From an uncultured Gammaproteobacteria bacterium (GTDB lineage Bacteria > Patescibacteriota > Microgenomatia > Levybacterales > UBA12049), in NCBI GenBank assembly GCA_964565795.1, contig CAZMGC010000002.1:1-57853 (forward strand): DNA of 57,853 nt, given 5' to 3'. Position 1 is the first letter of the stretch. The number at the start of each line of letters is the position of its first letter. This document shows positions 1-38,937 of this stretch, in pieces. A program made the translations under genes and the position numbers. Under the pieces are notes generated by a model that saw nothing but the letters and a program-made list of their open reading frames with translations, was not told the DNA's origin and searched no databases.

Positions 1-1
1 A

Positions 2-1852
2 GATCCATTAACAGTAACAATCGACGTAACTGTAGACGAATTATTATAATTCATAAAAGGCCCAGATTTCCCAACAGCCGGCAGCATTTACGATATAGCA
101 GAAATTAAAAATGTTTACACAACTGGAAGAGGCCGAATTTTAATTCGCGGAAAAGCTGATATCGAAGAAATTGGACAGGGAAAGAGTGCAATTATTATTA
201 CAGAGCTTCCATATCAGGTTAACAAAGCACTACTTGTTGCTAGAATTGCAGAGCTTGTAAGAGAAAAGAAAATCGAAGGAATATCCGACCTTAGAGACGA
301 ATCAGACAGACATGGAATTAGAGTAGTGGTTGAGCTAAAAAGAGACTCTTCTCCAAAAAGAGTTCTTAACAATCTATTCAAATATACTAGCCTTCAAACT
401 ACATTCTCAGCAAATGTCGTAGCGCTTGTTGATAATACACCACAAACCCTTAACCTCAAATCAATTTTGGAGGAATATATTAAGCACAGGTATCTTATTA
501 TTAAGAAAAGATCTGAGTTTGAACTCAAACAAGCTAAGGCAAGACTTCACATCTTAGAAGGACTTAAAATCGCAGTTGATAATCTTGATGCTGTAATTAA
601 AACGATTAGAGAATCCAAAACCCAAGAAGATGCTAAGGAAAACTTGATGAAGAAATTCAAGCTTTCAGAACTTCAAGCTGTAGCTATTTTAGACCTTCAA
701 CTTAGACGCCTTGCTGCTCTTGAGAGACAAAAAATTGAAGATGAATATCAAATGGTTAAAGAAACAATCGCGTATCTTGAGGACCTCTTGGCACATCCTG
801 AAAAAATCCTAAAGATTGTAAAGGATGAATCCAGCTATCTTAAAGAGAAATATTCCGATGAAAGAAGAACTAAGGTCTATAAAGGAAAAGTTGGAGAATT
901 CTCAGAAGAAGATCTAATTCCAAATGAACCAACAGTAATTACATTAACCACTACTGGGTATATCAAACGTCAATCATTAACAAGCTTCAGAACTCAGCAA
1001 AGAGGAGGAAAAGGAGTCAAAGGGATGACCACTAAAGACGAGGATGGAATCATGAACATACGCTCCACCATGACTCACGACAATATTCTTTTCTTCACAA
1101 ATAAAGGAAAGGTTTATCAGACAAAGGCTTATGAGATTGACGAGTCTTCTAGAACCAGCAAGGGCACAGCGGTGGTCAACTTAATCAATATAGAAGCAGG
1201 GGAAAAGGTAGAGTCATTTATCACTTATAACAAGGATGATGAATTTAAGCATGTATTCTTAGCTACCAGAAATGGAACTGTTAAGAAAACAGCAAAGTCT
1301 GAGTTTGAAAATATCAGAAAATCAGGAATTGTTGCTATAAAACTTGATAAGGGAGACGAGCTCGCATGGAGCAATCCAACAACCGGCGCAGACGATATTT
1401 TAGTTTACACTAGAAATGGAAAATGCATCAGATTTGACGAGAAATCCATAAGACCTCTCGGACGCGCTACTCGCGGAGTAAGAGGAATAAAACTCTCAGG
1501 AGATGATTTAGTGGTTGGTATGGACGTAGTTAAAAAAGATGACAATCCAGAATTACTAACTATAATGGAGAACGGTTACGGAAAGAAAACTTTAGTAAAA
1601 GAATTTAATGCGCAGAGTAGAGGAGGAATGGGAGTAAAAATCGCAGAAGTGACAGCTAAGACCGGAAAAGTAGCTTCTTCTCAAGTTATTCCACCAAACG
1701 CTAAAGAGGTAATCATAACTTCAATTAAAGGCCAGGTTGTAAAACTAGAGATTGACAGTATTCCAAAACTCTCACGCGCTACCCAGGGAGTAATCTTAAT
1801 GAGATTCTCCAAACAAGACGACAGAATCGCAGCTATAACCTGTGTTGAATAA
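2..1852 (+). CDS. gyrA: DNA gyrase subunit A, 3' ~1.85 kb (5' end outside window); frame interrupted by an in-frame TAA at 47-49
   Basis: Frame-2 translation from nt 2 reads DPLTVTIDVTVDELL*FIKGPDFPTAGSIYD...ITELPYQVNKALLVARIAELVREKKIEGISDLRDESDRHGIRVVVELKRD and continues into listed ORF 326-1852. These are canonical GyrA segments followed by C-terminal repeat blades. Confidence 0.93.
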
Positions 1853-2695
1853 ATGAAATTAGACGGCAAAGCAATTTCCTCTGAAATCCTAGAAATACTA
1901 AAACAGCGTGTCGAACTTCTCAAAAAGAAAAAAATAACCCCTACTATGGCCATAATCCTAATGGGTGACAATGAAGCTTCTAAAATTTACGTGAGACAAA
2001 AAGGACTTAAGGCTGAGGAAATTGGTGCAAAAGTTAAAGTTTTTCCGACTTCACGAGAAACAACGCACGAAGAATTAACCAAATTAATCAAAAAGCTTGA
2101 TAAAAATCCTAAAATTCATGGAATTATTATCCAAAGACCAGCTGGCCCAAATGTAGACGTAGATTCTTTAACTGAGCTTATTTCAGGCATAAAAGAAGTA
2201 GACGGATTTGGAAAACACTCCAAATATCCAGTCCCCGTAGCAGAAGCTTCATTTCTTCTCATAAAAAAAGCTTTTAAAGAAGGCAACCATACAGATAAAT
2301 TTACTAAATGGATCAAAGACCAAAAAATTGCAGTTATAGGAAAAGGGGAGACTGCAGGAAAGCCTATTATCGATCTTTTAAAAAAGCACAAGCTTAAACC
2401 TCAAGTAATTGACTCCAAAACCCCAAATAAAGAAAAAATATTAAAAGAAGCAGACATCATAATTACTGCCGTCGGAAAAACTATTCTTTCCACAAAACAA
2501 TTCAAAAAAGGAGTAATCCTTGTAGGAGTTGGACTATATACTGATGAAAATGGAAAACTAAGAGGGGACTACAATAACTCAGATGTCGAAAACGTGGCAA
2601 GCTTTTACTCGCCTACCCCAGGTGGAGTAGGACCAGTAAATGTAGCATGCCTTATGGAAAATTTAGTTAAAGCCGCCGAAAACTCTACTAAATAA
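1853..2695 (+). CDS. folD: bifunctional methylenetetrahydrofolate dehydrogenase/cyclohydrolase
   Basis: N-terminus MKLDGKAIS...ITPTMAIILMGDNEASKIYVRQK and C-terminal TPGGVGPVNVACLMEN are typical FolD. The ATG directly abuts the gyrA stop. Confidence 0.9.
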   Translation: MKLDGKAISSEILEILKQRVELLKKKKITPTMAIILMGDNEASKIYVRQKGLKAEEIGAKVKVFPTSRETTHEELTKLIKKLDKNPKIHGIIIQRPAGPNVDVDSLTELISGIKEVDGFGKHSKYPVPVAEASFLLIKKAFKEGNHTDKFTKWIKDQKIAVIGKGETAGKPIIDLLKKHKLKPQVIDSKTPNKEKILKEADIIITAVGKTILSTKQFKKGVILVGVGLYTDENGKLRGDYNNSDVENVASFYSPTPGGVGPVNVACLMENLVKAAENSTK

Positions 2696-2750
2696 TCTTG
2701 TAGTTAAAGCTCTAAATCAAACAAATATTACTACGGCAATCTAATCTTCG

Positions 2751-2780
2751 TTGACTTATTAACTTATAGTGTGTTAAAAT
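2751..2780 (+). promoter_or_regulatory. sigma70-type promoter, -10 close to start codon
   Basis: TTGACT (2751-2756), 18-nt spacer with TGn, TAAAAT (2775-2780), then 9 nt to ATG 2790. Confidence 0.55.
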
Positions 2781-2789
2781 CCCCGCACA

Positions 2790-3239
2790 ATGAATAATAA
2801 TGAAAATATTGAACTTAATTATTGGGGAGAAGGTTTTCAAAATATCTACACAAAACCTGATCCAAATAAAAGAACCATAAAGCAGAAGCTCGCAATCGTT
2901 ATTTCATTTATATCAGTTCTCGCTATTTTACCCACAACAATTTTTGCGATTACAAATTTTAATCCTGTTAATGACCAAAAACTTACGGCAAGAGTAACTA
3001 ATTTTGAACCAACGCAAGCAGTAAGCGAAATACCAACTCCTACTACAACACCACGAGTTAAGGACGTAGTTGTTAAAGGAATCGAATCTAATAAAGTAAA
3101 AGTTATTAATAATGATAGCTATTGGAAAATATCTAAAAGAACTTGCGGAACTGGTAAATATTATCTTTCGATAAAAGAAAAGAATGATAATAAAGCGCTT
3201 TATAAAGACGACTTTGTAATCGTAGATTGCAGTCTATAG
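2790..3239 (+). CDS. hypothetical membrane-anchored protein with LysM-like C-terminal segment
   Basis: One hydrophobic helix (LAIVISFISVLAILPTTIFAI). The C-terminus SYWKISKRTCGTGKYYLSIKEKN resembles LysM. No closer family recognised. Confidence 0.6.
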   Translation: MNNNENIELNYWGEGFQNIYTKPDPNKRTIKQKLAIVISFISVLAILPTTIFAITNFNPVNDQKLTARVTNFEPTQAVSEIPTPTTTPRVKDVVVKGIESNKVKVINNDSYWKISKRTCGTGKYYLSIKEKNDNKALYKDDFVIVDCSL

Positions 3240-3254
3240 TTAGCTTGTCTCCAC

Positions 3255-3284
3255 TTGACAAACCCCTAAGATAGTATTTAGATA
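3255..3284 (+). promoter_or_regulatory. sigma70-type promoter, -10 close to start codon
   Basis: TTGACA (3255-3260), 18-nt spacer, TAGATA (3279-3284), then 9 nt to ATG 3294. Confidence 0.5.
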
Positions 3285-3293
3285 TATATATCC

Positions 3294-4073
3294 ATGGAAA
3301 AAAGAGGAGTTGACCTTATTGGTGCCATTGTCGTTTTTTTTGTACTTCTGTTTGTCTATACGAAATTCATAGGACCTATTCCATTTGCAGTAAATAATGT
3401 AAACACAGCCACAACTGATGTTTTTCAAGCAACTGGTACTGGAAAGGCCTCCTCGGCCCCAGATCAAGCAGTAATTAACTTGGGAGTTACTTCTCAAGGG
3501 ACTTCTGTAGAGCAAGCACAAAACCAAGCAAATGAAGCCTCCAAGAGAATTATAAATGCCCTTAAAGAACAGGGAATTGAAGAAGATAATATTAAAACCA
3601 CAAATTATTCCATAAATCCTAACTATAGCTTTACAGGAGATAATCAAAGAATAACCGGATATACAGTTTCTCAAAATTTCGAAGTTGAATTACCAATCGG
3701 AAAAACAAATCAGGTAGTTGATACTTCTACTAAAGCAGGTGCAAATATGGTTGGGAGCATTTCATTTAAGCTAAATGACAAAAAGCAAAACGAATTAAAA
3801 AATGAAGCGAGAAAAGAAGCAGTAGAAATGGCAAAAAAATCTGCTGAAGGACTTGCAGACGCATCCGGAATAAAACTTGGGAAAATCATAAATGTGACAG
3901 AATCCACAGGAATGATAGGTATGCCTATGCCATTTACTGTAGCTGCAAAAGCAGTAGACTCAGCCCAAGGCGGAGACGTCTTAATTCAAAATCCAGAGGG
4001 GGAAGTCAGCAATATTACTCCAGGCGAAAGCAATGTTGAAGTAACTGTAATTCTTACTTATCAAACTAATTAA
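3294..4073 (+). CDS. SIMPL/DUF541 (YggE-like) periplasmic protein
   Basis: N-terminal anchor, then the pattern ...AVINLGVTSQG.SVEQAQNQANEASKRIINALKEQGIEEDNIKTTNYSINP... and ITPGE..VEVTV, typical of the SIMPL family. Confidence 0.75.
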   Translation: MEKRGVDLIGAIVVFFVLLFVYTKFIGPIPFAVNNVNTATTDVFQATGTGKASSAPDQAVINLGVTSQGTSVEQAQNQANEASKRIINALKEQGIEEDNIKTTNYSINPNYSFTGDNQRITGYTVSQNFEVELPIGKTNQVVDTSTKAGANMVGSISFKLNDKKQNELKNEARKEAVEMAKKSAEGLADASGIKLGKIINVTESTGMIGMPMPFTVAAKAVDSAQGGDVLIQNPEGEVSNITPGESNVEVTVILTYQTN

Positions 4074-4074
4074 G

Positions 4075-4212
4075 ATGTCTAAGGACGAACAGAAGTTTCA
4101 AAAAGCATTTTTACTACAAGTTAGAGCCACATTAAAAGGCGACTATGAACTCGCAACAAAAGCTAGGACTAAAGTAAATTTTTACAGGAAGAAAATAGAC
4201 GACAGAAATTAA
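4075..4212 (+). CDS. possible small ORF (45 aa), not in ORF track
   Basis: ATG overlaps the previous stop (TAAGATG). Translation is MSKDEQKFQKAFLLQVRATLKGDYELATKARTKVNFYRKKIDDRN. There is no homology evidence. Confidence 0.3.
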   Translation: MSKDEQKFQKAFLLQVRATLKGDYELATKARTKVNFYRKKIDDRN

Positions 4213-4216
4213 CTAC

Positions 4217-5164
4217 TTATTCATTTCCGCTATGAAATGACTTATGAACTTCTCTAAGCTGCTTATTTGTTATGTGGGTATAAATCTGAGTAGTCGCAAT
4301 ATTCTTATGTCCGAGCATCTCTTGTACACTTCTCAAATCAGCCCCGTTAGTAAGTAAGTCCGTAGCAAAACTGTGCCTCAAAGTGTGAACTGTAGCATCT
4401 ACTGGTATCCTGGCTTGCCTAACATATTTCTTTACAACTCTCTCAACGCTTCTGGCAGTAAGCCTCATTCTTTCACCATTATTTTCTTCTATTACAGCAC
4501 CTGAATAACGTATAAACATAGGCTTATATGCGTCTTTTCTGTGATTGAGGTATTTTTGTATCCAGTCAGCAGCCCTATCTGAAACGAACACAATTCTTGA
4601 ACGTCTGCCTTTACCTATGATTCCAAACTCCTTGCGGTCTAAATTTATCTGGTCGCGGTTAAGACTTACAAGCTCAGACACACGAAGTCCAGTCGAAAAT
4701 AAAAGCTCCATAATTGCGCGGTCTCTTACTCCTTCTTCCTTAGAAGTATCAGGGCTGGTAACCAGTCTTTCTACTTGATCCCGCTCTAAGAACTTTAGAG
4801 ATCTGCTTTCAGTTTTTGGTAGATCAATTTTGGATGGCTCAAGAGCTTTTATGTCATTTTTTATAAGAAATCTGAGAAATGAACGGAGGGCGATTATGTA
4901 ATAATTCTGCGTAACCCTCTTAAGCCCTGCGCCTTTGTCGTCAGTTTTATTAGAGAGAAAAACTCTGTATTTTCTTATATCTGAAAGGTCTATGTTCTCG
5001 AGATTTTTATTAGGAATTGTTTGCATGTACCATGCTCGGAAGACTTCTAGGTAATGTCTGTAGTCTCTGATCGTAAGCTTACTGCAATTTTTTTCAATCT
5101 CGAGGTATTCTAAAAAATCATTTGAATATCTTAAAAGCTTTTCTTCCATAATACTATAAGTCAA
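4217..5164 (-). CDS. tyrosine recombinase, XerC/XerD family
   Basis: Has the SAM-like N-domain (LEYLEIEKNCSKLTIRDYRHYL). Catalytic motifs are present: GLRVSEL, HTLRHSFATDLL (HxxR) and GHKNIATTQIYTH (nucleophile Tyr). Confidence 0.88.
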   Translation of the reverse strand: MTYSIMEEKLLRYSNDFLEYLEIEKNCSKLTIRDYRHYLEVFRAWYMQTIPNKNLENIDLSDIRKYRVFLSNKTDDKGAGLKRVTQNYYIIALRSFLRFLIKNDIKALEPSKIDLPKTESRSLKFLERDQVERLVTSPDTSKEEGVRDRAIMELLFSTGLRVSELVSLNRDQINLDRKEFGIIGKGRRSRIVFVSDRAADWIQKYLNHRKDAYKPMFIRYSGAVIEENNGERMRLTARSVERVVKKYVRQARIPVDATVHTLRHSFATDLLTNGADLRSVQEMLGHKNIATTQIYTHITNKQLREVHKSFHSGNE

Positions 5165-5352
5165 AATTTGAAGCTAAATTTCTTGAAAAACACCAATTAG
5201 CAGAAGTTAGGGGAGAGTGCCACGTTTGAAAAATTTCTATATCGAAGTGGATCAGACTGTATCCAGTAATCTTAGCTATTTCAGGCAGATAATAACTCAT
5301 TAATAATAAACGCTTTCATTCTGCGATGATCCTAGCGTTGCAAAATGAAAGG

Positions 5353-5382
5353 AAATTGTAAGACGCTAGCGTCTTACAATTT
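5353..5382. repeat. 30-bp perfect palindrome (11-bp arms AAATTGTAAGA / TCTTACAATTT around CGCTAGCG)
   Basis: AAATTGTAAGACGCTAGCGTCTTACAATTT equals its own reverse complement. It lies between the divergent xer gene and ORF 5439. Confidence 0.95.
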
Positions 5383-5401
5383 AATTATACGACGCGGGGA
5401 A

Positions 5402-5430
5402 TTGTATAGTCAAGAGAGATAGATTATAAT
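5402..5430 (+). promoter_or_regulatory. sigma70-type promoter driving a leaderless start
   Basis: TTGTAT, 17 nt, TATAAT (5425-5430), then 8 nt to ATG 5439. No Shine-Dalgarno. Confidence 0.55.
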
Positions 5431-5438
5431 GGCAGCTT

Positions 5439-5846
5439 ATGTTTATAGAATTAGCGATTGCTATTGATCAGAAAAACAACACAAAACCATTAACCGAAAA
5501 AATTGTTAAAAAAGTTGCAGCAAGTCTAACAAATCTAGACGATGACCCAAGAGGAAGATCACTAACGATGCTTGGGGTAAAACTAGGAAGTATTCCGGTA
5601 CTAGAAGAAGGTGTAATTACTCATCACGAACATGTAACCAGATATGTTTACTTCTTCGAATCTTCAAGTCGCTTGGATCCTCTACAAGTTACAGGTGTGG
5701 CGATAGATGGAAGAACAATCACTGAATATACATATAGACGAGAACAGCCAGAATCACATACCATGAGGAACATCTCACTATCTAGAGCTTGGGAATTATT
5801 TAGTGAAGTTGACAAAAGAGTTCCGGTTCAATTTCCAGCTGTTTGA
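5439..5846 (+). CDS. hypothetical protein (135 aa), G+C-richer accessory gene
   Basis: Long ORF with its own promoter. No family recognised. Confidence 0.6.
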   Translation: MFIELAIAIDQKNNTKPLTEKIVKKVAASLTNLDDDPRGRSLTMLGVKLGSIPVLEEGVITHHEHVTRYVYFFESSSRLDPLQVTGVAIDGRTITEYTYRREQPESHTMRNISLSRAWELFSEVDKRVPVQFPAV

Positions 5847-5871
5847 AATAAGATCCTTTGGATGATATAAA
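5843..5871 (+). promoter_or_regulatory. sigma70-type promoter (extended -10) driving a leaderless start
   Basis: TTGAAA (5843-5848, overlapping the upstream TGA stop), 17 nt ending in TGa, TATAAA (5866-5871), then 6 nt to ATG 5878. Confidence 0.6.
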
Positions 5872-5877
5872 TTAATC

Positions 5878-6651
5878 ATGCCAGAAGGAATACATAGACG
5901 AGATATTAGACCGTCACAAGGTGCATTTAGATCAGTCGATCAGGTAAACTCTAACAACCCTAGACTACAGCAAGCAAGAAGAATAACCTCATCTAAAGAC
6001 CACGGTTCAAACGTGCGTCACAGAATAAGAAATATTGCTCTAGCATTAGGAATAATAGCAGGTGGTGGAAGCGGAATCGCACACATTGTTGACGAGGTTA
6101 ACAAACCCCCCGCAGAAACACTTCAGAACTATCAAAACCTAATTACTCAAATCGACATGAACAAATATCTAGTTGAGATCCACAAAGATGGCGAAAAAGA
6201 TTTAGTAGTACGACATGATCCTTACATACCAGACTTTGATGATAGACAAGAAGGCAGAGACAATTATATTGAGATGAATGACATAGTCTCAATAAATGGT
6301 ACCCCTTGGGATGGCAAAGCTCCATTTATTATTGAAAACACTCCGGTTGTAATAGCCACTGATCCAACCTCTGGAATTCTTACTGCACCCTGGTTTGCTG
6401 TTGAATTAGAACACAAAAGCCCTCTGGGAGATATCACTAAAACAGTTGGTTTTATGAGCCATAGTGCTGCTACAGACTCCCACATCACACCTCTTGAATC
6501 TGATGGTGGTATGGTAAATGCTCGGTTCGAAAATGGGCAAATTGTGGGAAAAAATGAATCTGGAGATACAGTGGTGCCTAATGATAAAATAGGCTTAGCA
6601 TCTATCGCAACACACACTTTAACTACTCAGGTTGGAAACCCACAATCTTAA
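5878..6651 (+). CDS. hypothetical membrane-anchored protein (257 aa)
   Basis: Basic N-terminus, then one TM helix (IRNIALALGIIAGGGSGIAHIV). The C-terminal tail IATHTLTTQVGNPQS is shared with ORFs 41695-41982 and 39980-40762. Confidence 0.65.
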   Translation: MPEGIHRRDIRPSQGAFRSVDQVNSNNPRLQQARRITSSKDHGSNVRHRIRNIALALGIIAGGGSGIAHIVDEVNKPPAETLQNYQNLITQIDMNKYLVEIHKDGEKDLVVRHDPYIPDFDDRQEGRDNYIEMNDIVSINGTPWDGKAPFIIENTPVVIATDPTSGILTAPWFAVELEHKSPLGDITKTVGFMSHSAATDSHITPLESDGGMVNARFENGQIVGKNESGDTVVPNDKIGLASIATHTLTTQVGNPQS

Positions 6652-6658
6652 TTTTAAC

Positions 6659-6687
6659 TTGACATATTCTCGGCCTATAGTTATAAT
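6659..6687 (+). promoter_or_regulatory. consensus sigma70 promoter driving a leaderless start
   Basis: TTGACA, 17 nt, TATAAT, then 8 nt to ATG 6696. Confidence 0.7.
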
Positions 6688-6695
6688 AAGCGCCT

Positions 6696-7157
6696 ATGTC
6701 AGACAGATTAAAACACGCACCTGAATCAGCTATTAGATTCGCTGTTAGTCATCCAAGAGCAACTAGACTAGGTGCGCTTGCACTCTCCGCTGCGCTTGCT
6801 ACAACAGCTGTGACACCTGAAGGCCAAAATCCACTAACAAGAATCAAAATTGGAAGTAATGATCCAGAAATAATGACTCAACTTGAAGAAAACGATGGGG
6901 CTTTTCTCAGAGGCAGACCTAACTCTAACAGTGCACCAGTTGCAAGGGCCCCTATAGGAGAAGCTTTCACTGTAATAGGGCTCGTAGAAGATGGCAGATG
7001 GGTTAAAGTTAAACTAGACCCTAAGGAAAACATTCCAGACATTGATATGAATTATGGATTACTACCTAAAAATGATAAAGGAATTACAATAATTCCTAAG
7101 GAAGTTTATATTAAAAGACCTCTTGTAAAGGAAGTCTTCCCTAAACCTAAGAAATAA
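6696..7157 (+). CDS. hypothetical exported protein with SH3b-like segment (153 aa)
   Basis: Signal/anchor-like ATRLGALALSAALATTAVT. GRPNSNSAPVARAPIGEAFTVIGLVEDGRWVKVKL resembles a bacterial SH3 domain. Confidence 0.6.
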   Translation: MSDRLKHAPESAIRFAVSHPRATRLGALALSAALATTAVTPEGQNPLTRIKIGSNDPEIMTQLEENDGAFLRGRPNSNSAPVARAPIGEAFTVIGLVEDGRWVKVKLDPKENIPDIDMNYGLLPKNDKGITIIPKEVYIKRPLVKEVFPKPKK

Positions 7158-7233
7158 GCGAATTTTAGAAATACCTACCAACTCCGTGAATAACCTCTAC
7201 TCTATGCCTGGATGAGTACGATAGTAATTAAAA

Positions 7234-7253
7234 TTTAGCTTCATTTAGCCTCA
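7234..7253 (+). repeat. tandem 10-bp iteron-like pair TTTAGCTTCA TTTAGCCTCA
   Basis: Core TTAGCYT recurs on + at 7235, 7245, 7413, 7594, 7676, 7982 and 8041. It recurs on - at 7893-7899 and at 5171-5177 beside the xer start. Confidence 0.8.
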
Positions 7254-7391
7254 AAAATATAATAATTATATATCCTATAGCGGGGGAGGGATCATATTTT
7301 AAGCAATTGGCAAATACTTAAGAGAGTTAGGCGATAAAAGATAAACGTAAGTTAAAATTCAAGTAAATATATGAGAAATATTCGAAAGAAA

Positions 7392-7553
7392 AACAGGTCT
7401 TCTCCGGGTATATTAGCTTCCGTGACGTCGTAAAAGTATTATTCTACGACGTTATCAGTTTCTACTTCCTAGCGCCTATAATGTCCATATTTTAAGTATA
7501 TGCTTTTGTGGAGAGAATGATAGGAGTCACTACGTTTGTTTAGAAGACCTGTT
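7392..7553. repeat. 12-bp long-range inverted repeat enclosing internal hairpins
   Basis: AACAGGTCTTCT (7392-7403) pairs with AGAAGACCTGTT (7542-7553). Inside it, ACGTCGTA/TACGACGT (7425-7432/7445-7452) form an 8-bp stem with a 12-nt loop. A second 8-bp stem with a 12-nt loop lies at 7641-7668. Confidence 0.8.
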
Positions 7554-7624
7554 GCATCTCTCCGGTAACTAGTTGGTTATTGCATTAATGTGCTTAGCCT
7601 TACACTACGCTCTTCTAAGAGGAG

Positions 7625-7633
7625 TTATCCACA
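7625..7633 (+). promoter_or_regulatory. perfect DnaA-box consensus TTATCCACA
   Basis: Exact 9-mer. A one-mismatch inverted box TGTGGCTAA lies at 8053-8061. Its function is unproven. Confidence 0.3.
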
Positions 7634-8138
7634 TAGGTCACGATTAGACTGCCATATCAATCTAATCGATGATTTTTAGCCTCAAAATCTTAAAGAACAG
7701 TGTTCGTATTTTTTTCGCAATAATAAGGTGACACGTTTAAAGAGAAAGGTATAATTCTTCAGATAATATAGATGCGATTTATTCCCGATACAGGTGAGTT
7801 CTTAAAATTACATATGTGTCTTCTACTCTAAAGACGTATGGGTCTATATAGCTGTGAAAATTACTCAAAAAACCTGTGAAATTGCGACGTCGAGGCTAAA
7901 ATTTGTACATTTTAGTCCTATAATAATTTGATGAATTACTGTATCAGACTATATCACCCTTCTATACATCAAACTATATCATTAGCCTCACTTACCCCTC
8001 TCCTCTTCCCTGTCTTCCACAGTCAAAAAAATTTTCTATTTTAGCTTCAACTTGTGGCTAACTATTTTTAATTCTGAGCCTAATAAAAATGTAATTAGTG
8101 ATTTTAAAGGCTTTATAAGCTATCTCACTTCCCTTTTT

Positions 8139-8942
8139 CTAGGTCCAAGAGGTAAATACGACTAAAACAATAAACACGAATACAGCTACCCAAATATACT
8201 CCCAAAGCACAGATTTAAATAATCTTTTCTCAAACCAAAGATGAGAAAGCCCAACAATAATGTAATAAAATCCAGTTAAGAAAAGTGATATAACGAGTGG
8301 CTTACTTGGCCAAAACCACAACAAAAATGACATTTGAGTAAGCGCTGTACTTAAAAACAATCCCCAGATTATTTCTGTTTTCGCTTTCTTTTCGAGTGTA
8401 TAAGTCCACAATGAATGGACTATTAAAAGAAAAGAATAAACGAAAATTAAAGGTAAAATTATAAAGAAACTTAACTGCGAGCTAAACACTGTATTTGTGA
8501 AAAAAGCGTATATGAAAATTGACAAAACAAATGACACTGTCCTAGCACTTGATAATAATGCAATAGTTCTAACTGATGAGATTGTGAAAATGTTTTGGCT
8601 TAAAAATGCTGAATAGAGTCCAATCGAGTAAAGAATAGTTAAAAATATTTGCACAAGAAGACGGGGCGGCAAAGAGAAGTAGAACAAACCGAATGCTAAT
8701 GTATAAAGAAAGGGTAAAATGAAAACTTGCGGTGTGAAATTACCTTTCAAATCCTTTCTAAGTGCCCAATATAAAAACCCGTTGGTAAAAAAAGCAATTA
8801 GCACTACTAAATAAATTCCTGATCTTGTCAGAAAATGTTCAACTAGAAAAAGGCAAACAGAAAGAGTTAAAACACCGACTGCAAAACGTTGTCTTTTTGT
8901 GAAAATATTCTTTTTAAGCAAAGCAGAAGTTTTAAGCTTCAT
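8139..8942 (-). CDS. polytopic membrane protein, unknown function
   Basis: About 7-8 hydrophobic helices. It sits directly downstream of yebC with no gap. Confidence 0.7.
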   Translation of the reverse strand: MKLKTSALLKKNIFTKRQRFAVGVLTLSVCLFLVEHFLTRSGIYLVVLIAFFTNGFLYWALRKDLKGNFTPQVFILPFLYTLAFGLFYFSLPPRLLVQIFLTILYSIGLYSAFLSQNIFTISSVRTIALLSSARTVSFVLSIFIYAFFTNTVFSSQLSFFIILPLIFVYSFLLIVHSLWTYTLEKKAKTEIIWGLFLSTALTQMSFLLWFWPSKPLVISLFLTGFYYIIVGLSHLWFEKRLFKSVLWEYIWVAVFVFIVLVVFTSWT

Positions 8943-9665
8943 TTAAAGACTGAGATTGGAATAAACTTTTTGAACATCATCCATATCCTCAAGCGCTGAA
9001 AGAAAATTAACAATTTTTTCTTTCTGTTCTTCCCCCACTTCAACAGTATTTTTTGGTTTTCTCGAAATTTCAGCACCTGTTACACTTAACCCCTGTGCCA
9101 TTAATCCTTCTTTTATCTTAGCTAAATCTGATACTTGAGTATATACTCCCACCTCTTCTCCTCTATCCTCTACATCTAATGCGCCCAGTTCTGCAGATAA
9201 CAAAAAAATATCGTCAAGAGATTTATCATTTTTTATAACTGTAATTTCACCTGACAGATCAAATTGATATGCAACAGCACCGGGTCCTGCGAAGCTTGCA
9301 CCTGATTTATTAAATAAACTTTTTACCTCAGAAGTTGTTCTATTAGTGTTATCTGTTACTGCTTCGACTAAAACTGATACTCCTCCTGGAGCAAATCCTT
9401 CATATGTTAATTCTGATAAATCCCCTGCTTCTTTACTGGTAGCGCGTGCAATTGCTCTTTCAATATTATCCTTTGGCATATTGGCACTTCTAGCAAGCTC
9501 AATTGCAAGCCTAAGTCTTGGATTTTGATCAGGGTCTCCTATTCCCCCACCCTGTTTCACTGCAATAGTTATTGCATTAGAAATTTTTGTAAAAGTTGCA
9601 CCACGTTTTACGTCTGCAGCCCCCTTTTGTCTTTTAATTGTTGACCATTTAGAATGTCCACTCAT
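8943..9665 (-). CDS. yebC: YebC/PmpR family DNA-binding regulator
   Basis: MSGHSKWSTIKRQKGAADVKRGATFTK... is the hallmark YebC N-terminus. Confidence 0.9.
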   Translation of the reverse strand: MSGHSKWSTIKRQKGAADVKRGATFTKISNAITIAVKQGGGIGDPDQNPRLRLAIELARSANMPKDNIERAIARATSKEAGDLSELTYEGFAPGGVSVLVEAVTDNTNRTTSEVKSLFNKSGASFAGPGAVAYQFDLSGEITVIKNDKSLDDIFLLSAELGALDVEDRGEEVGVYTQVSDLAKIKEGLMAQGLSVTGAEISRKPKNTVEVGEEQKEKIVNFLSALEDMDDVQKVYSNLSL

Positions 9666-36079: not shown

Positions 36080-37177
36080 TTATGTTCCAATCTTAAATTC
36101 AACTACATCTCCATCTTTTACTATGTAATCTCGTCCTTCTAGCTGAGCTTTTCCATTTTCGCGTGCTCCCTTCCAGCCATTAAACTCCACAAATGGATCA
36201 AATCCGACGACTTCGGCTTTAATAAATTTCTTAATAAAATCTGTATGAATTTCTCCCGCTGCGAGCTGAGCGTTAATGCCTTTACGAATTGTCCAAGCTC
36301 TAACCTCTTTCTCCCCTGCTGTTAAAAAAGAAATAAGACCTAATTCTTGATAAGCTTTTTGAATTAGTCTTTGAAGGCCTGAAAATTCTAATCCCAAATC
36401 TTTTAAGTATTCGATTTGCTCTTCGTTAGACAAGCTCGCGAGTTCAGCTTCAATTTTTGCAGAAATCACGACTACTTTTTCTTGTCTTACATTTAGTTTT
36501 TCAGAGTAATCTTTTGCAATCTGATCAATTTTAGAAGAATTATAATCTGATTCTGAAACATTTAAAACTATAATTTCAGGTTTATTTGTTAGAAGAAATA
36601 AATCGCGGGTCGCTTCTTTTTCTTCTTCCGTTAAATCAATGTCATAAGCTCGTTTTCCAGAATTTAATCCCTCTAGCAATTTTTCTGCACCTGATTTTTT
36701 ATGAGGTTCAAGTTTTCTATTTTCTAAAGTTTTCCCTAGAGTTTGTATATCAGCTAAAGCAAGTTCTGTATTTATTGTTTCATAATCCTCTTTAACTCCA
36801 ACACTTCCCTCGCGGACAATGTCACCATCTTCAAAAGCTCTTACGACATGTGCAATAACTGATACTTCACGGATATGTGAGAGAAATTTGTTACCTAACC
36901 CAGCGCCTTCAGAGGCACCCTTAACCAAACCTGCAATATCTACGAAATTAACAGTCGCGGGTTTAATTGGAGGCAAATTATCCATTTTTTCCTCTGACAT
37001 TGTAATCTCGGCAAGTTTTTCCAAACGAGAATCTGGAACAGGAACTACTCCGACATTTGGCTCAATTGTCGCGAATGGATAATTAGCAACAAGTGCTTGC
37101 TGCCTTTTTAAAAGCGCGTTAAACAATGTAGACTTACCTACATTTGGCAGACCCACAATTCCAATACTTAAATTCAT
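36080..37177 (-). CDS. ychF: ribosome-binding ATPase YchF
   Basis: [18 protein letters not shown], a TGS-like C-terminus. TATAAT (37185-37190) lies 7 nt upstream of the ATG. Confidence 0.93.
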
Positions 37178-37192
37178 GAGGCTAATTATATC

Positions 37193-37222
37193 AAAAAAAG
37201 AACCTCGCTTTGCGAGGTTCTT
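37193..37222 (-). terminator. rho-independent terminator for ORF 37243-37458
   Basis: An 11-bp stem AAGAACCTCGC/GCGAGGTTCTT, followed on the minus strand by a T7 run. Confidence 0.75.
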
Positions 37223-38442: not shown

Positions 38443-38873
38443 CTAATTTTGCGGATATTCACCAAACTCATTCATGCACTCAGCCGTAAATAAAGCAAGT
38501 GTAATTTTTAAAGTAATCAATTTTTTCCCAGATTCTTTTAATGCACGTAAAGCAGCTAAAGATCTTTTCAAACCGTCAATTATTAAAATTGGCTCGTCTT
38601 CTTTTGTTCTTACTCCAAAAATTGTAAAAAAGAAAAACCATTAGATAAAATTTTTCTTTTATAATCTTCAACAAAGGATTCCTCATGAGATCCTAACTTA
38701 TTCGAAATAAAGTGACTAATTCTTTTATCATTTTTTAATTTCGGAGGATAAAATTCCTTAAGTAAGTCAGGATCAATAATATTGATAATTTTAAAATCCT
38801 TATTTTGCGACTTGTGAAATAAAAGGATAGCGTTTGTGATCCATGCTGACGCATTAGGGTCTACCAGATTCAT
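38443..38873 (-). pseudogene. frameshifted gene of unknown function (weak phosphoribosyltransferase-like C-terminal half)
   Basis: The 87-aa ORF (38610-38873) stops in a T/A-run. A second frame, open from about 38640, continues as ...VRTKEDEPILIIDGLKRSLAALRALKESGKKLITL...EYPQN*. A 1-nt shift in the homopolymer region would join the two. Confidence 0.5.
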
Positions 38874-38879
38874 GAGGCT

Positions 38880-38908
38880 AATTTACTCCCCTTTTGCTTC
38901 GGTGTCAA
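38880..38908 (-). promoter_or_regulatory. consensus sigma70 promoter driving a leaderless start
   Basis: On the minus strand: TTGACA-CCGAAGCAAAAGGGGAG-TAAATT, then 6 nt to ATG 38873. Confidence 0.6.
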
Positions 38909-38937
38909 GAATTTAATTTCAGTTTGAAATTGAAAAG

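Follow-up and report, generated by a model that had tools for sequence, protein, structure and literature searches.

The plasmid sites cer and psi consist of an Xer core flanked by protein-binding DNA, on which PepA together with ArgR or ArcA shapes the synapse, and these accessory proteins make resolution independent of chromosome position. The XerA site of Sulfolobus is not tied to the zone of fork fusion. XerS/difSL of streptococci and lactococci and XerH/difH of Helicobacter and Campylobacter each link a palindromic core to the recombinase gene, once per chromosome. The arms of difSL (TTTCCGAAAA) and difH (AGTTATGAAAA) end in an A-run beside the centre, a dif site that adjoins the recombinase gene is regarded as a possible hallmark of single-recombinase systems, and archaeal XerA is a single Xer that works on a conserved 28-bp site without FtsK (PMC5357621). 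The locus compared with these systems here is a noncoding region of about 1 kb, at positions 7158-8138 of the stretch of 57,853 nucleotides that was analysed (the window; contig CAZMGC010000002.1). The region contains a dif-like palindrome and a dispersed 10-mer repeat and lies near xer, a gene for a tyrosine recombinase. The region and its counterparts in related genomes are referred to as the element.

The window comes from a genome of Candidatus Levyibacteriota, within the candidate phyla radiation (Patescibacteria). The favoured interpretation, which is given a probability of roughly 0.55, is that the element is a class-wide, xer-linked DNA locus that combines a dif-type core with an extensive stretch of accessory or regulatory DNA, where the 10-mers would be sites for a putative factor. 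The region in the window would then be the Levyibacteria version of a single-copy intergenic DNA locus of the candidate phyla radiation (CPR) class Microgenomatia. Most of the uncertainty attaches to two parts of this interpretation, namely the action of Xer on the palindrome and a role of the repeats in recombination rather than transcription. No description of the locus was found in published work on CPR origins, structured RNAs or Xer/dif in Patescibacteria.

A single-copy intergenic locus of Microgenomatia

The stretch 7158-8138 is free of genes, as the original prediction had it: the listing of open reading frames (ORFs) holds nothing of 60 aa or more there, the longest ORFs measure 38-39 aa, and ARAGORN finds no tRNA or tmRNA in the region. 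The genes on both sides converge. A set of 22 syntenic loci was retrieved via the DUF5656 membrane protein encoded on the right, and nearly all of them have an ORF-free gap of ~760-1200 nt at the equivalent position, which is occupied by an intact gene in none of them. The window region can be aligned with close relatives over ~900 nt at ~72% identity, and short blocks within it keep 88-96% identity where the DUF5656 protein falls to 45-55%. With a profile built from ten sequences, the element is detected wherever a Levyibacteria locus extends over the position. A minus-strand micro-ORF over 7200-7256 was considered as the conserved feature and rejected, since its amino acids are less conserved than its nucleotides and it is missing in distant relatives.

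For the class-wide search, the most conserved block, GTCGYAAAAGTWWTATTNTRCGAC, serves as the pattern. It matches at least 120 genomes with one match each, and among the matches listed all belong to Microgenomatia (Levy-, Woese-, Gottesman-, Pace-, Collier-, Curtiss- and Blackburnbacteria). The neighbours in the 120 loci listed are a minus-strand xer on the left in 82, and on the right a minus-strand DUF5656 gene in 95, a minus-strand yebC in 88 and a plus-strand TPR gene in 81. The layout is thus fixed as xer(-), element, DUF5656(-), yebC(-), TPR(+), and in the window, too, a plus-strand TPR gene lies beyond yebC. The constant neighbours point to an ancestral layout in which xer is transcribed away from the element, and the element is followed by the 3' end of DUF5656-yebC.

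Outside Levyibacteria the start of xer lies 500-1200 nt from the palindrome, and in the window more than 2 kb from it. Three plus-strand ORFs of 135, 257 and 153 aa at 5439-7157, separated by gaps of 31 and 44 nt, stand between xer and the element in the window; they are fast-evolving and poorly conserved and have no family match except a weak SH3 match. This arrangement goes back to an insertion of three genes in the window's clade, at a point to the left of block B1 and away from the palindrome core. The element persists where the three genes part it from xer. Gene content in this slot differs among Levyibacteria: two ORFs, of 457 and 143 aa, occupy it in locus L002, a single ORF fills it in L008 (419 aa) and in L021 (614 aa), and in L017 it is empty. 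Because it holds different genes in different Levyibacteria, the slot looks like an insertion hot spot beside the recombinase gene. At the other end of the element, some relatives carry a 7-nt microsatellite, (TATTTGC)n, in 2-6 copies before the DUF5656 stop (L002 ~1410-1450, L011 ~6800-6845, L008 ~6805-6830); the window is without it.

The dif-like palindrome and the neighbouring recombinase

The palindrome measures 28 bp in total, with arms of 11 nt that are complementary at 10/11 positions around the 6-bp centre GTATTA, and so has the form of a dif site, in which two inverted arms of ~11 bp surround a centre of 6-8 bp. Its class consensus is TTAYGTCGYAAAA-GTWWTA-TTGTRCGACRTAA, with arms of 13 nt matching at 12/13; the centre is variable (GTATTA, GTTATA, GTAATA) and the arms are fixed. 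The palindrome is unique in the 57.8-kb window even when 3 mismatches are allowed. Each locus contains one, and the 120 loci listed come from 120 different assemblies, which makes the site single-copy at that scope. Its conservation is also seen in Levyibacteria retrieved through synteny alone, where it is nearly invariant. The palindrome is a candidate core site on which the neighbouring Xer would act, and the near-symmetric arms are those expected when one recombinase binds both. A tie of the locus to a recombinase, which the original prediction had raised, finds support in the ancestral position of the element directly upstream of xer, in the adjoining xer of the 82 loci counted above, and in the dif-like core itself.

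The Xer protein has XerD as its best structural match (1a0p, 3.9e-40), and a XerH structure matches at only 1.4e-10. Among NCBIfam models it scores 264 bits for XerD and 261 bits for XerC, both under cutoff, 217.1 bits for XerA_Arch (cutoff 220) and 145.6 bits for XerS (cutoff 267), which places it outside the XerS and XerH families. Pfam assigns only the SAM-like core-binding and catalytic domains, over residues 16-300. The repeats had been suggested to be recombinase arm-type sites, an idea that does not sit with a Xer protein in which Pfam finds no arm-binding domain. An integron is likewise rejected, as the integrase model reaches 119 bits against a cutoff of 265 and the gaps between the inserted ORFs are too short for attC.

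Every Levyibacteria lineage examined has arm-like half-sites (CGTCGYANAA) ahead of xer, and extra arm copies are found only on the xer side of the palindrome. One such half-site, CGTCGTATAAT, overlaps the -10 element (TATAAT) of the TTGACT-18-TATAAT match upstream of xer. The presence of arm-like half-sites in the xer promoter suggests that Xer may regulate its own gene. In Pacebacteria, loci L091 and L131 have an isolated extra arm, TTATGTCGCACAATATT, ~215 nt to the xer side of the palindrome. A second dif-like site that would bound the inserted genes, as expected of a Xer-integrated element, was also sought: the relaxed pattern gives 16 hits against 9-21 in shuffles, no more than background. 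The idea was dropped; the degenerate site at 5370-5394 belongs to the xer promoter, and the insertion point is not at the core.

The repeated 10-mer and the oriented modules

The heptamer TTAGCYT occurs in the region on the plus strand at 7235, 7245, 7413, 7594, 7676, 7982 and 8041 and on the minus strand at 7893-7899, with an extra minus-strand copy at 5171-5177. All of these positions agree with the original prediction, as do the identical 13-mers at 7244-7256 and 7675-7687 and the 10-bp head-to-tail tandem, which extends over 7233-7253 (2.1 copies). The heptamer is the core of a longer 10-mer, TTTAGCYTCA (M1). Over the window as a whole it is not over-represented (28 copies found, 28.9 expected from shuffles). 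Eight of the 28 copies sit in the region, which makes up 1.7% of the window, and the other 20 are spread over 56.9 kb, a background of 0.35 per kb; the Poisson P for this clustering, calculated by hand and post hoc, is ~4e-9. Independent replication is provided by motif enrichment, in which the element interiors of 145 non-redundant loci are compared with 1.15 Mb of flanks: TTAGCYTC is 18-fold denser in the element. The motif is therefore not equally frequent elsewhere. In a de novo count, the most repeated 8-mers of the elements all belong to the TTAGCYT family (TAGCCTCA at 23 loci, TTAGCCTC at 21 and TTTAGCCT at 17).

When ten close relatives are aligned, the copies at 7235, 7245, 7676, 7893(-), 7982 and 8041 are conserved; the copy at 7413 retains only AGCCTCC, and the copy at 7594 falls in a variable block and is unconserved. 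The tandem is kept in 10/10 close relatives and in most distant Levyibacteria. All copies of any one genome agree on a variant that is specific to the lineage: TTAGCTTC in L008, which has five or six copies, TTAGCGCA in L116, TTTAGCAT in L106 and TTAGCCTGGT in Pacebacteria, where TTTAGCCTGGT or its complement is repeated up to seven times over the two strands. Such concerted change of dispersed copies fits the sites of a co-evolving trans-acting protein, and recognition by a putative trans-acting DNA-binding protein is the most likely role of the 10-mer. The proposal of a protein-binding type of array is upheld to the extent that a conserved array of short sites exists at the DNA level, with the protein itself still putative. 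YebC, whose gene is always adjacent, is no more than a candidate binder. A match of 7/9 positions between the 10-mer and the DnaA box makes DnaA a formal candidate. A minus-strand string at 8053-8061, TTAGCCACA, differs at one position from the 10-mer core TTAGCCTCA and at one from the DnaA box TTATCCACA, as a hybrid of the two.

Some copies stand beside the palindrome or a gene start. In both Levyibacteria and Pacebacteria the palindrome has an M1-like copy right beside its left arm; in Pacebacteria the core TTAGCCT lies 2-3 nt from the arm. Another, at 5169-5177 (-), lies 4 nt before the predicted xer start and is conserved among relatives. Two further copies had been reported at gene starts, and both are found: in the YchF gene (36080-37177, minus strand) and in an 87-aa ORF that starts at 38873 (minus strand), TTAGCCTCATG stands right beside the start codon, and TTAGCCTCATGAAT there directly follows TATAAT or TAAATT. 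These two genes share a 16-mer, AATTAGCCTCATGAAT (37177-37193 and 38873-38910, minus strand), and in both the ATG lies 6-7 nt past the -10-like hexamer (TATAAT in one, TTGACA-17-TAAATT in the other), the layout expected of leaderless mRNAs. A role of the motif as a general start-codon or promoter module is rejected, as 9/125 copies outside the element lie at gene starts against 16/370 for the control, which is no enrichment.

The 10-mer is one of several motif families of the element (Table 1), and most of these families lie nearly always on one strand. In the enrichment, TTAGCCTGG is 43-fold denser inside elements, the T-run TTCG[TG][AG]TTTT is 26-fold enriched (89 on the plus strand, 3 on the minus strand), and the DnaA box TT[AT]TCCACA, present in 102/145 elements, is 20-fold enriched (102 plus, 2 minus). 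CTATATCAH is 20-fold enriched (154 plus, 4 minus), CCTATA[AG]T 16-fold and YGTGAAAW 10-fold.

Table 1. Features of the region and its flanks, with positions in the window
Feature	Position	Strand	Basis or remark
xer, tyrosine recombinase of XerC/XerD/XerA type, 315 aa	4217-5164	-	Pfam, structure and NCBIfam matches
Degenerate second dif-like site CGTCGTATAA-TTAAA-TTGTAAGACG	5370-5394	-	Overlaps TTGACT-18-TATAAT match upstream of xer
SH3-domain ORF	6696-7157	+	Left flank, points into region
Block B0 CTCTATGCCTGGATGAGTACGATAGTAATT	7200-7229	+	Close-Levyibacteria alignment; helices 1-4 of RNAalifold consensus
Tandem 10-mer M1, TTTAGCTTCA then TTTAGCCTCA	7234-7253	+	Head-to-tail
Block B2 CCTATAGCGGGGGAGGGA	7274-7291	+	One CCTATAR copy and G-run
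Block B3 GGTCTTCTCC, then M1-like TTAGCTTCC at 7413-7421	7396-7421	+	Abuts left arm of palindrome
Dif-like palindrome ACGTCGTAAAA-GTATTA-TTCTACGACGT	7425-7452		Most conserved piece
Perfect DnaA box TTATCCACA within conserved string AGTTATCCACA	7625-7633	+	Alignment
Inverted pair of M1-like half copies, CGATTAGACTG-N6-CAATCTAATCG	7641-7668		Inverted-repeat listing and alignments
M1 copy TTTAGCCTCA	7675-7684	+	Best-conserved copy (TTTTAGCCTCAAAA)
T-run block TGTTCGTATTTTTTTCG	7701-7717	+	TTCGGGTTTT in other lineages
Sigma-70-like promoter match GTGACA-16-TATAAT, 11/12	7728-7755	+	Window's close clade only; consensus match only
Two GTGAAA(A/T) half-sites, 22 nt apart	7852-7882	+	Direct-repeat listing and alignments
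M1 copy (GAGGCTAAAA on plus strand)	7892-7901	-	Repeat listings and alignments
CCTATAAT	7917-7924	+	Nearly invariant class-wide; -10-box-like on either strand
Two copies of ATCARACTATATCA, i.e. ATCA(G/A)ACTATATCA, 25 nt apart	7941-7981	+	Four TATCA sites
M1 copy ATTAGCCTCA, then invariant CT-rich block CCCCTCTCCTCTTCCC	7981-8010	+	Alignment
M1 copy TTTAGCTTCA	8040-8049	+	Direct-repeat listing and alignment
CTCACTTCCC, CACTTC(C/T)C motif family	8124-8133	+	Just ahead of DUF5656 stop codon
DUF5656 membrane protein gene	8139-8942	-	Right flank, points into region
yebC	8943-9665	-	Next to DUF5656; the two are constant right-hand neighbours of the element

Several of the tabulated features have variants in relatives. 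Within block B0 the 3' half of the 10-mer recurs in partial, inverted form (TGAG, GTGA), and B2 is among the best-conserved blocks of the left part in a 28-sequence Levyibacteria alignment. At the inverted pair, relatives read TTTAGCTTG...CAAGCTAAA. A minus-strand promoter-like match, CTGATA-16-TATTAT, lies at CCTATAAT, and the class-wide form of the TATCA block is TATATCAAACTATATCA, with the tandem CTATATCA as an oriented module of the element. The order and orientation of the modules shift between lineages. The DnaA box stands before the TTAG palindrome in the window's clade and between the GTGAAAA pair and CCTATAAT in other, more distant Levyibacteria, whose box aligns with the TTTGTACAT that follows the minus-strand 10-mer copy of the window. 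Woesebacteria have the TATATCA block ahead of the T-run, Collierbacteria have CCTATAA flipped, and the GTGAAA pair forms direct repeats in Levy-, Woese- and Collierbacteria and an inverted repeat in Pacebacteria. These shifts fit protein-binding DNA modules rather than one folded RNA.

Competing explanations and known systems

In the favoured interpretation, Xer would act on the 28-bp palindrome, and gene and site would form a module of the kind seen in XerS/difSL and XerH/difH. The remainder of the element would be a fixed, oriented series of short protein-binding modules, comprising 6-9 copies of TTTAGCYTCA, one DnaA box, the T-run, two GTGAAAA sites, CCTATAAT and the tandem CTATATCA. Several molecules of the 10-mer protein would load to the left and right of the core, and the resulting complex would either shape the recombination complex, as the accessory sequences of cer and psi do, or control local promoters.

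Several observations weigh against this interpretation. The arms match the canonical XerD arm at only 7/11 positions (own comparison), the palindrome could instead be the operator of a dimeric transcription factor, and none of the phage contigs searched contains it, so that Xer-integrating elements lend no support. Many Woesebacteria and other elements lack any 8-mer repeated three times or more. The repeat-poor Woesebacteria elements indicate that the array is a lineage-specific elaboration outside the universal core, and repeats that are not universal are not essential to whatever the core does. One genome (L009/L086) is without the right two-thirds of the element, a loss that could be a natural deletion variant or an assembly artefact. 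Finally, the skews at 4-fold sites show no switch at the element over 17 kb to the left and 50 kb to the right. In the genome with the truncated element, which is shared by L009, L086 and L070, the last 55 DUF5656 codons are gone too (L009 6633-7037), and the tandem 10-mers and the palindrome are retained.

The missing skew switch matters because a classical FtsK-guided dif would sit at the terminus. The cumulative skew of the window peaks near the element and the genes converge there, which first hinted at a terminus. Over the 50 kb of the right flank, GC skew at 4-fold sites (GC3) is +0.13 to +0.17 in minus-strand genes and -0.11 to -0.21 in plus-strand genes, and the minus strand is therefore the leading strand there. 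On the left, plus-strand genes also look lagging, with GC3 of -0.03 to -0.38 in the window and seven related loci and the corresponding TA skew (TA3) at about -0.15 in four of the seven. The left plus-oriented block extends over ~12-15 kb, after which minus-strand genes resume. A terminus location is thus not supported, as over 17 kb of left and 50 kb of right flank the window and the 7 related loci show no skew switch at 4-fold sites. The plus-strand block itself (window 1-7157; L025 1-16800) contains holB, gyrB, an H+-pyrophosphatase gene, gyrA, folD and a SIMPL-family gene, and appears to be head-on to replication and conserved across Levyibacteria.

By analogy with archaeal XerA or with cer and psi, a terminus-independent Xer site is possible. 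A fuller version of this idea, in which ~1 kb of accessory DNA governs the site and a lineage-specific protein on the TTAGCCT repeats, assembling to either side of the core together with DnaA at its one oriented box, couples the Xer event to the replication cycle, is put forward tentatively and is more doubtful than probable. The coupled event would be dimer resolution or another one, such as cassette capture beside xer. No chromosomal counterpart of cer/psi with initiator input was found described in the literature for any bacterium.

The element could also be a long transcriptional control region, in which the palindrome and half-sites would be operators of a dimeric regulator, for example the neighbour of the YebC/PmpR family. 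The 10-mers would then be operators as well, acting also on the leaderless-type promoters of ychF and ORF 38873, and the region would control xer or a small transcript rather than serve recombination. This fits TTAGCCTCATGAAT right after TATAAT or TAAATT at two gene starts, the conserved M1-like copy ahead of the xer start, the overlap of half-site CGTCGTATAAT with a -10 hexamer, and promoter-like hexamers on both strands (CCTATAAT and TTGATA). The yebC gene is always adjacent, and its NCBIfam name is that of a DNA-binding regulator, but YebC-family proteins have been given a role in translation in recent work, which counts against YebC operators. Furthermore, arms of 11-13 nt that flank a 6-bp centre and stay invariant over a class are a feature more of recombinase cores than of operators. 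Outside the element the 10-mer shows no enrichment at gene starts, relatives space the promoter-like hexamers anywhere between 13 and 16 nt apart, and the element is conserved even where three genes stand between it and xer. A control region of this kind is accordingly considered unlikely.

Replication control, either as the chromosomal origin or as a locus of the datA/DARS type that titrates or reactivates DnaA, is distinctly unlikely. Under this explanation the TTAGCCTCA 10-mer, with its 7/9 match to the DnaA box TTATCCACA, would be a lineage-specific weak DnaA site. The perfect DnaA box in fixed orientation in 102/145 elements, the hybrid string at 8053-8061, the T-run, the slightly higher AT content of the element (63.5%, against 60.9% in the flanks), the gyrA, gyrB and holB genes on the left with dnaB on the right, and the single copy per genome would all be in keeping with it. 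Allowing one mismatch, however, elements have a median of one DnaA box and a maximum of three, the ORFs annotated over 17 kb to the left and 50 kb to the right include no dnaA or dnaN, and the Pacebacteria variant TTAGCCTGGT is further from the DnaA box. About 80% of the right-hand genes point at the element, and the forks deduced from skew run toward it from the right, which excludes an origin. The chromosomal origin oriC is thus rejected on the genes converging on the element, the opposite skew polarity at 4-fold sites on the right, the single DnaA box and the want of dnaA or dnaN nearby. The original prediction had also named iteron-type replication origins and partition sites. Neither is borne out: an iteron origin has tandem same-strand repeats of ~17-22 bp beside a rep gene, whereas the 10-mers here are dispersed over both strands with a single tandem of 2.1 copies, and Pfam and NCBIfam identify no rep-like neighbour and no dnaA gene. 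The 16-bp parS palindrome TGTTNCACGTGAAACA has no match in the region at up to 3 mismatches, where only GTGAAA half-sites are present.

An equally improbable alternative is a large noncoding RNA with a defined structure, read from the plus strand or, as a 3' extension of the DUF5656-yebC operon, from the minus strand. It would be comparable to OLE RNA beside its membrane-protein partner, with the 10-mers as pairing or protein-binding RNA motifs. A stretch of ~950 nt that is conserved without an ORF as a mosaic of invariant and variable blocks, and that is constantly linked to a membrane-protein gene, would suit such an RNA. Plus and minus copies of the 10-mer can pair (consensus helix 567-575 with 827-835), and the Y:R position of the palindrome stem is mostly compatible with a plus-strand hairpin. 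Folding z-scores of -0.26 and -1.04 for the two strands, on the other hand, correspond to ordinary stability. The RNAalifold consensus pairs sparsely, with 71 pairs in ~1000 nt (~14% of nucleotides paired) and a positive covariation term of +0.64. Six of the 71 pairs change on both sides and 33 never vary; the observed counts are reached in just 2-6 of 500 shuffles, a control that is inflated because the structure was derived from the same alignment. The lone "compensatory" change in the long-range helix 7675/7893 arises because L008 changed all its 10-mer copies. Rfam yields nothing relevant at gathering thresholds in the whole window or at E values up to 10 in 7000-8300. No terminator-like site was found in the region, promoter-like matches are not above chance, and no promoter-plus-terminator pair is conserved. 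A minus-strand reading would turn the common T..G state of the stem into a C-A mismatch, and the variable module order and orientation again count against a single fold.

The weakest explanation, functionless debris, whether of a decayed gene or of defunct promoter and start modules such as the original prediction had allowed, can point to the missing ORF and to the 10-mer at two gene starts, but the blocks keep 88-100% identity where the DUF5656 protein is down to 45-55%, the core blocks recur in at least 120 genomes of one class, no relative has an intact gene and the indels in the element alignment are not multiples of three, so that class-wide conservation rules it out and leaves it next to no probability.

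CPR bacteria are largely uncultured, and the handling of their chromosomes has been deduced almost wholly from gene content. The locus adds a candidate Xer core, a conserved DnaA box away from any origin and a set of co-evolving 10-mers. If the palindrome is a dif site, it would define the Xer system of Microgenomatia and raise the question of how resolution is controlled away from a skew switch; if it is not, the locus would be an unexplained class-wide element. In either case, the 24-nt pattern is a specific marker with which the locus can be found in Microgenomatia assemblies.

The element can be compared with several known systems. OLE RNA and OapA offer a parallel in that a long conserved stretch without coding function is constantly linked to the gene of a small membrane protein, but the element lacks an Rfam match and excess stability, shows almost no covariation and has its modules shuffled between lineages. 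Iteron origins, oriC, datA and DARS likewise have a repeated motif, a DnaA box, an AT-rich tract and a gene-free stretch; compared with iteron origins and oriC, the element has no rep or dnaA gene nearby, irregular 10-mers on both strands, one DnaA box and the wrong fork polarity. The archaeal XerA/dif pair has other arm sequences, belongs to hosts that are not bacterial, and comes with no described accessory region. XerS/difSL and XerH/difH share the palindromic core linked to the recombinase gene and have arms with A-run ends like those of the arm ACGTCGTAAAA here, where AAAA stands beside the centre and the two arms are near-symmetric. Their sites are immediately adjacent to the gene, whereas the site here lies 500-1200 nt off, and more than 2 kb in the window; in addition, the Xer protein here is of the XerC/XerD/XerA type with 315 aa, ~1 kb of extra motifs is present, there is no skew switch, and recombination at the site is putative. 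The combination of an Xer core with flanking modules recalls cer and psi. The accessory DNA here is ~5 times longer and lies on both sides of the core, and its motifs (TTTAGCYTCA, the DnaA box, GTGAAAA and CTATATCA) are unrelated to the ARG boxes and ArcA sites of those systems. Whereas cer and psi are plasmid sites, the element described here is chromosomal and conserved across a class.

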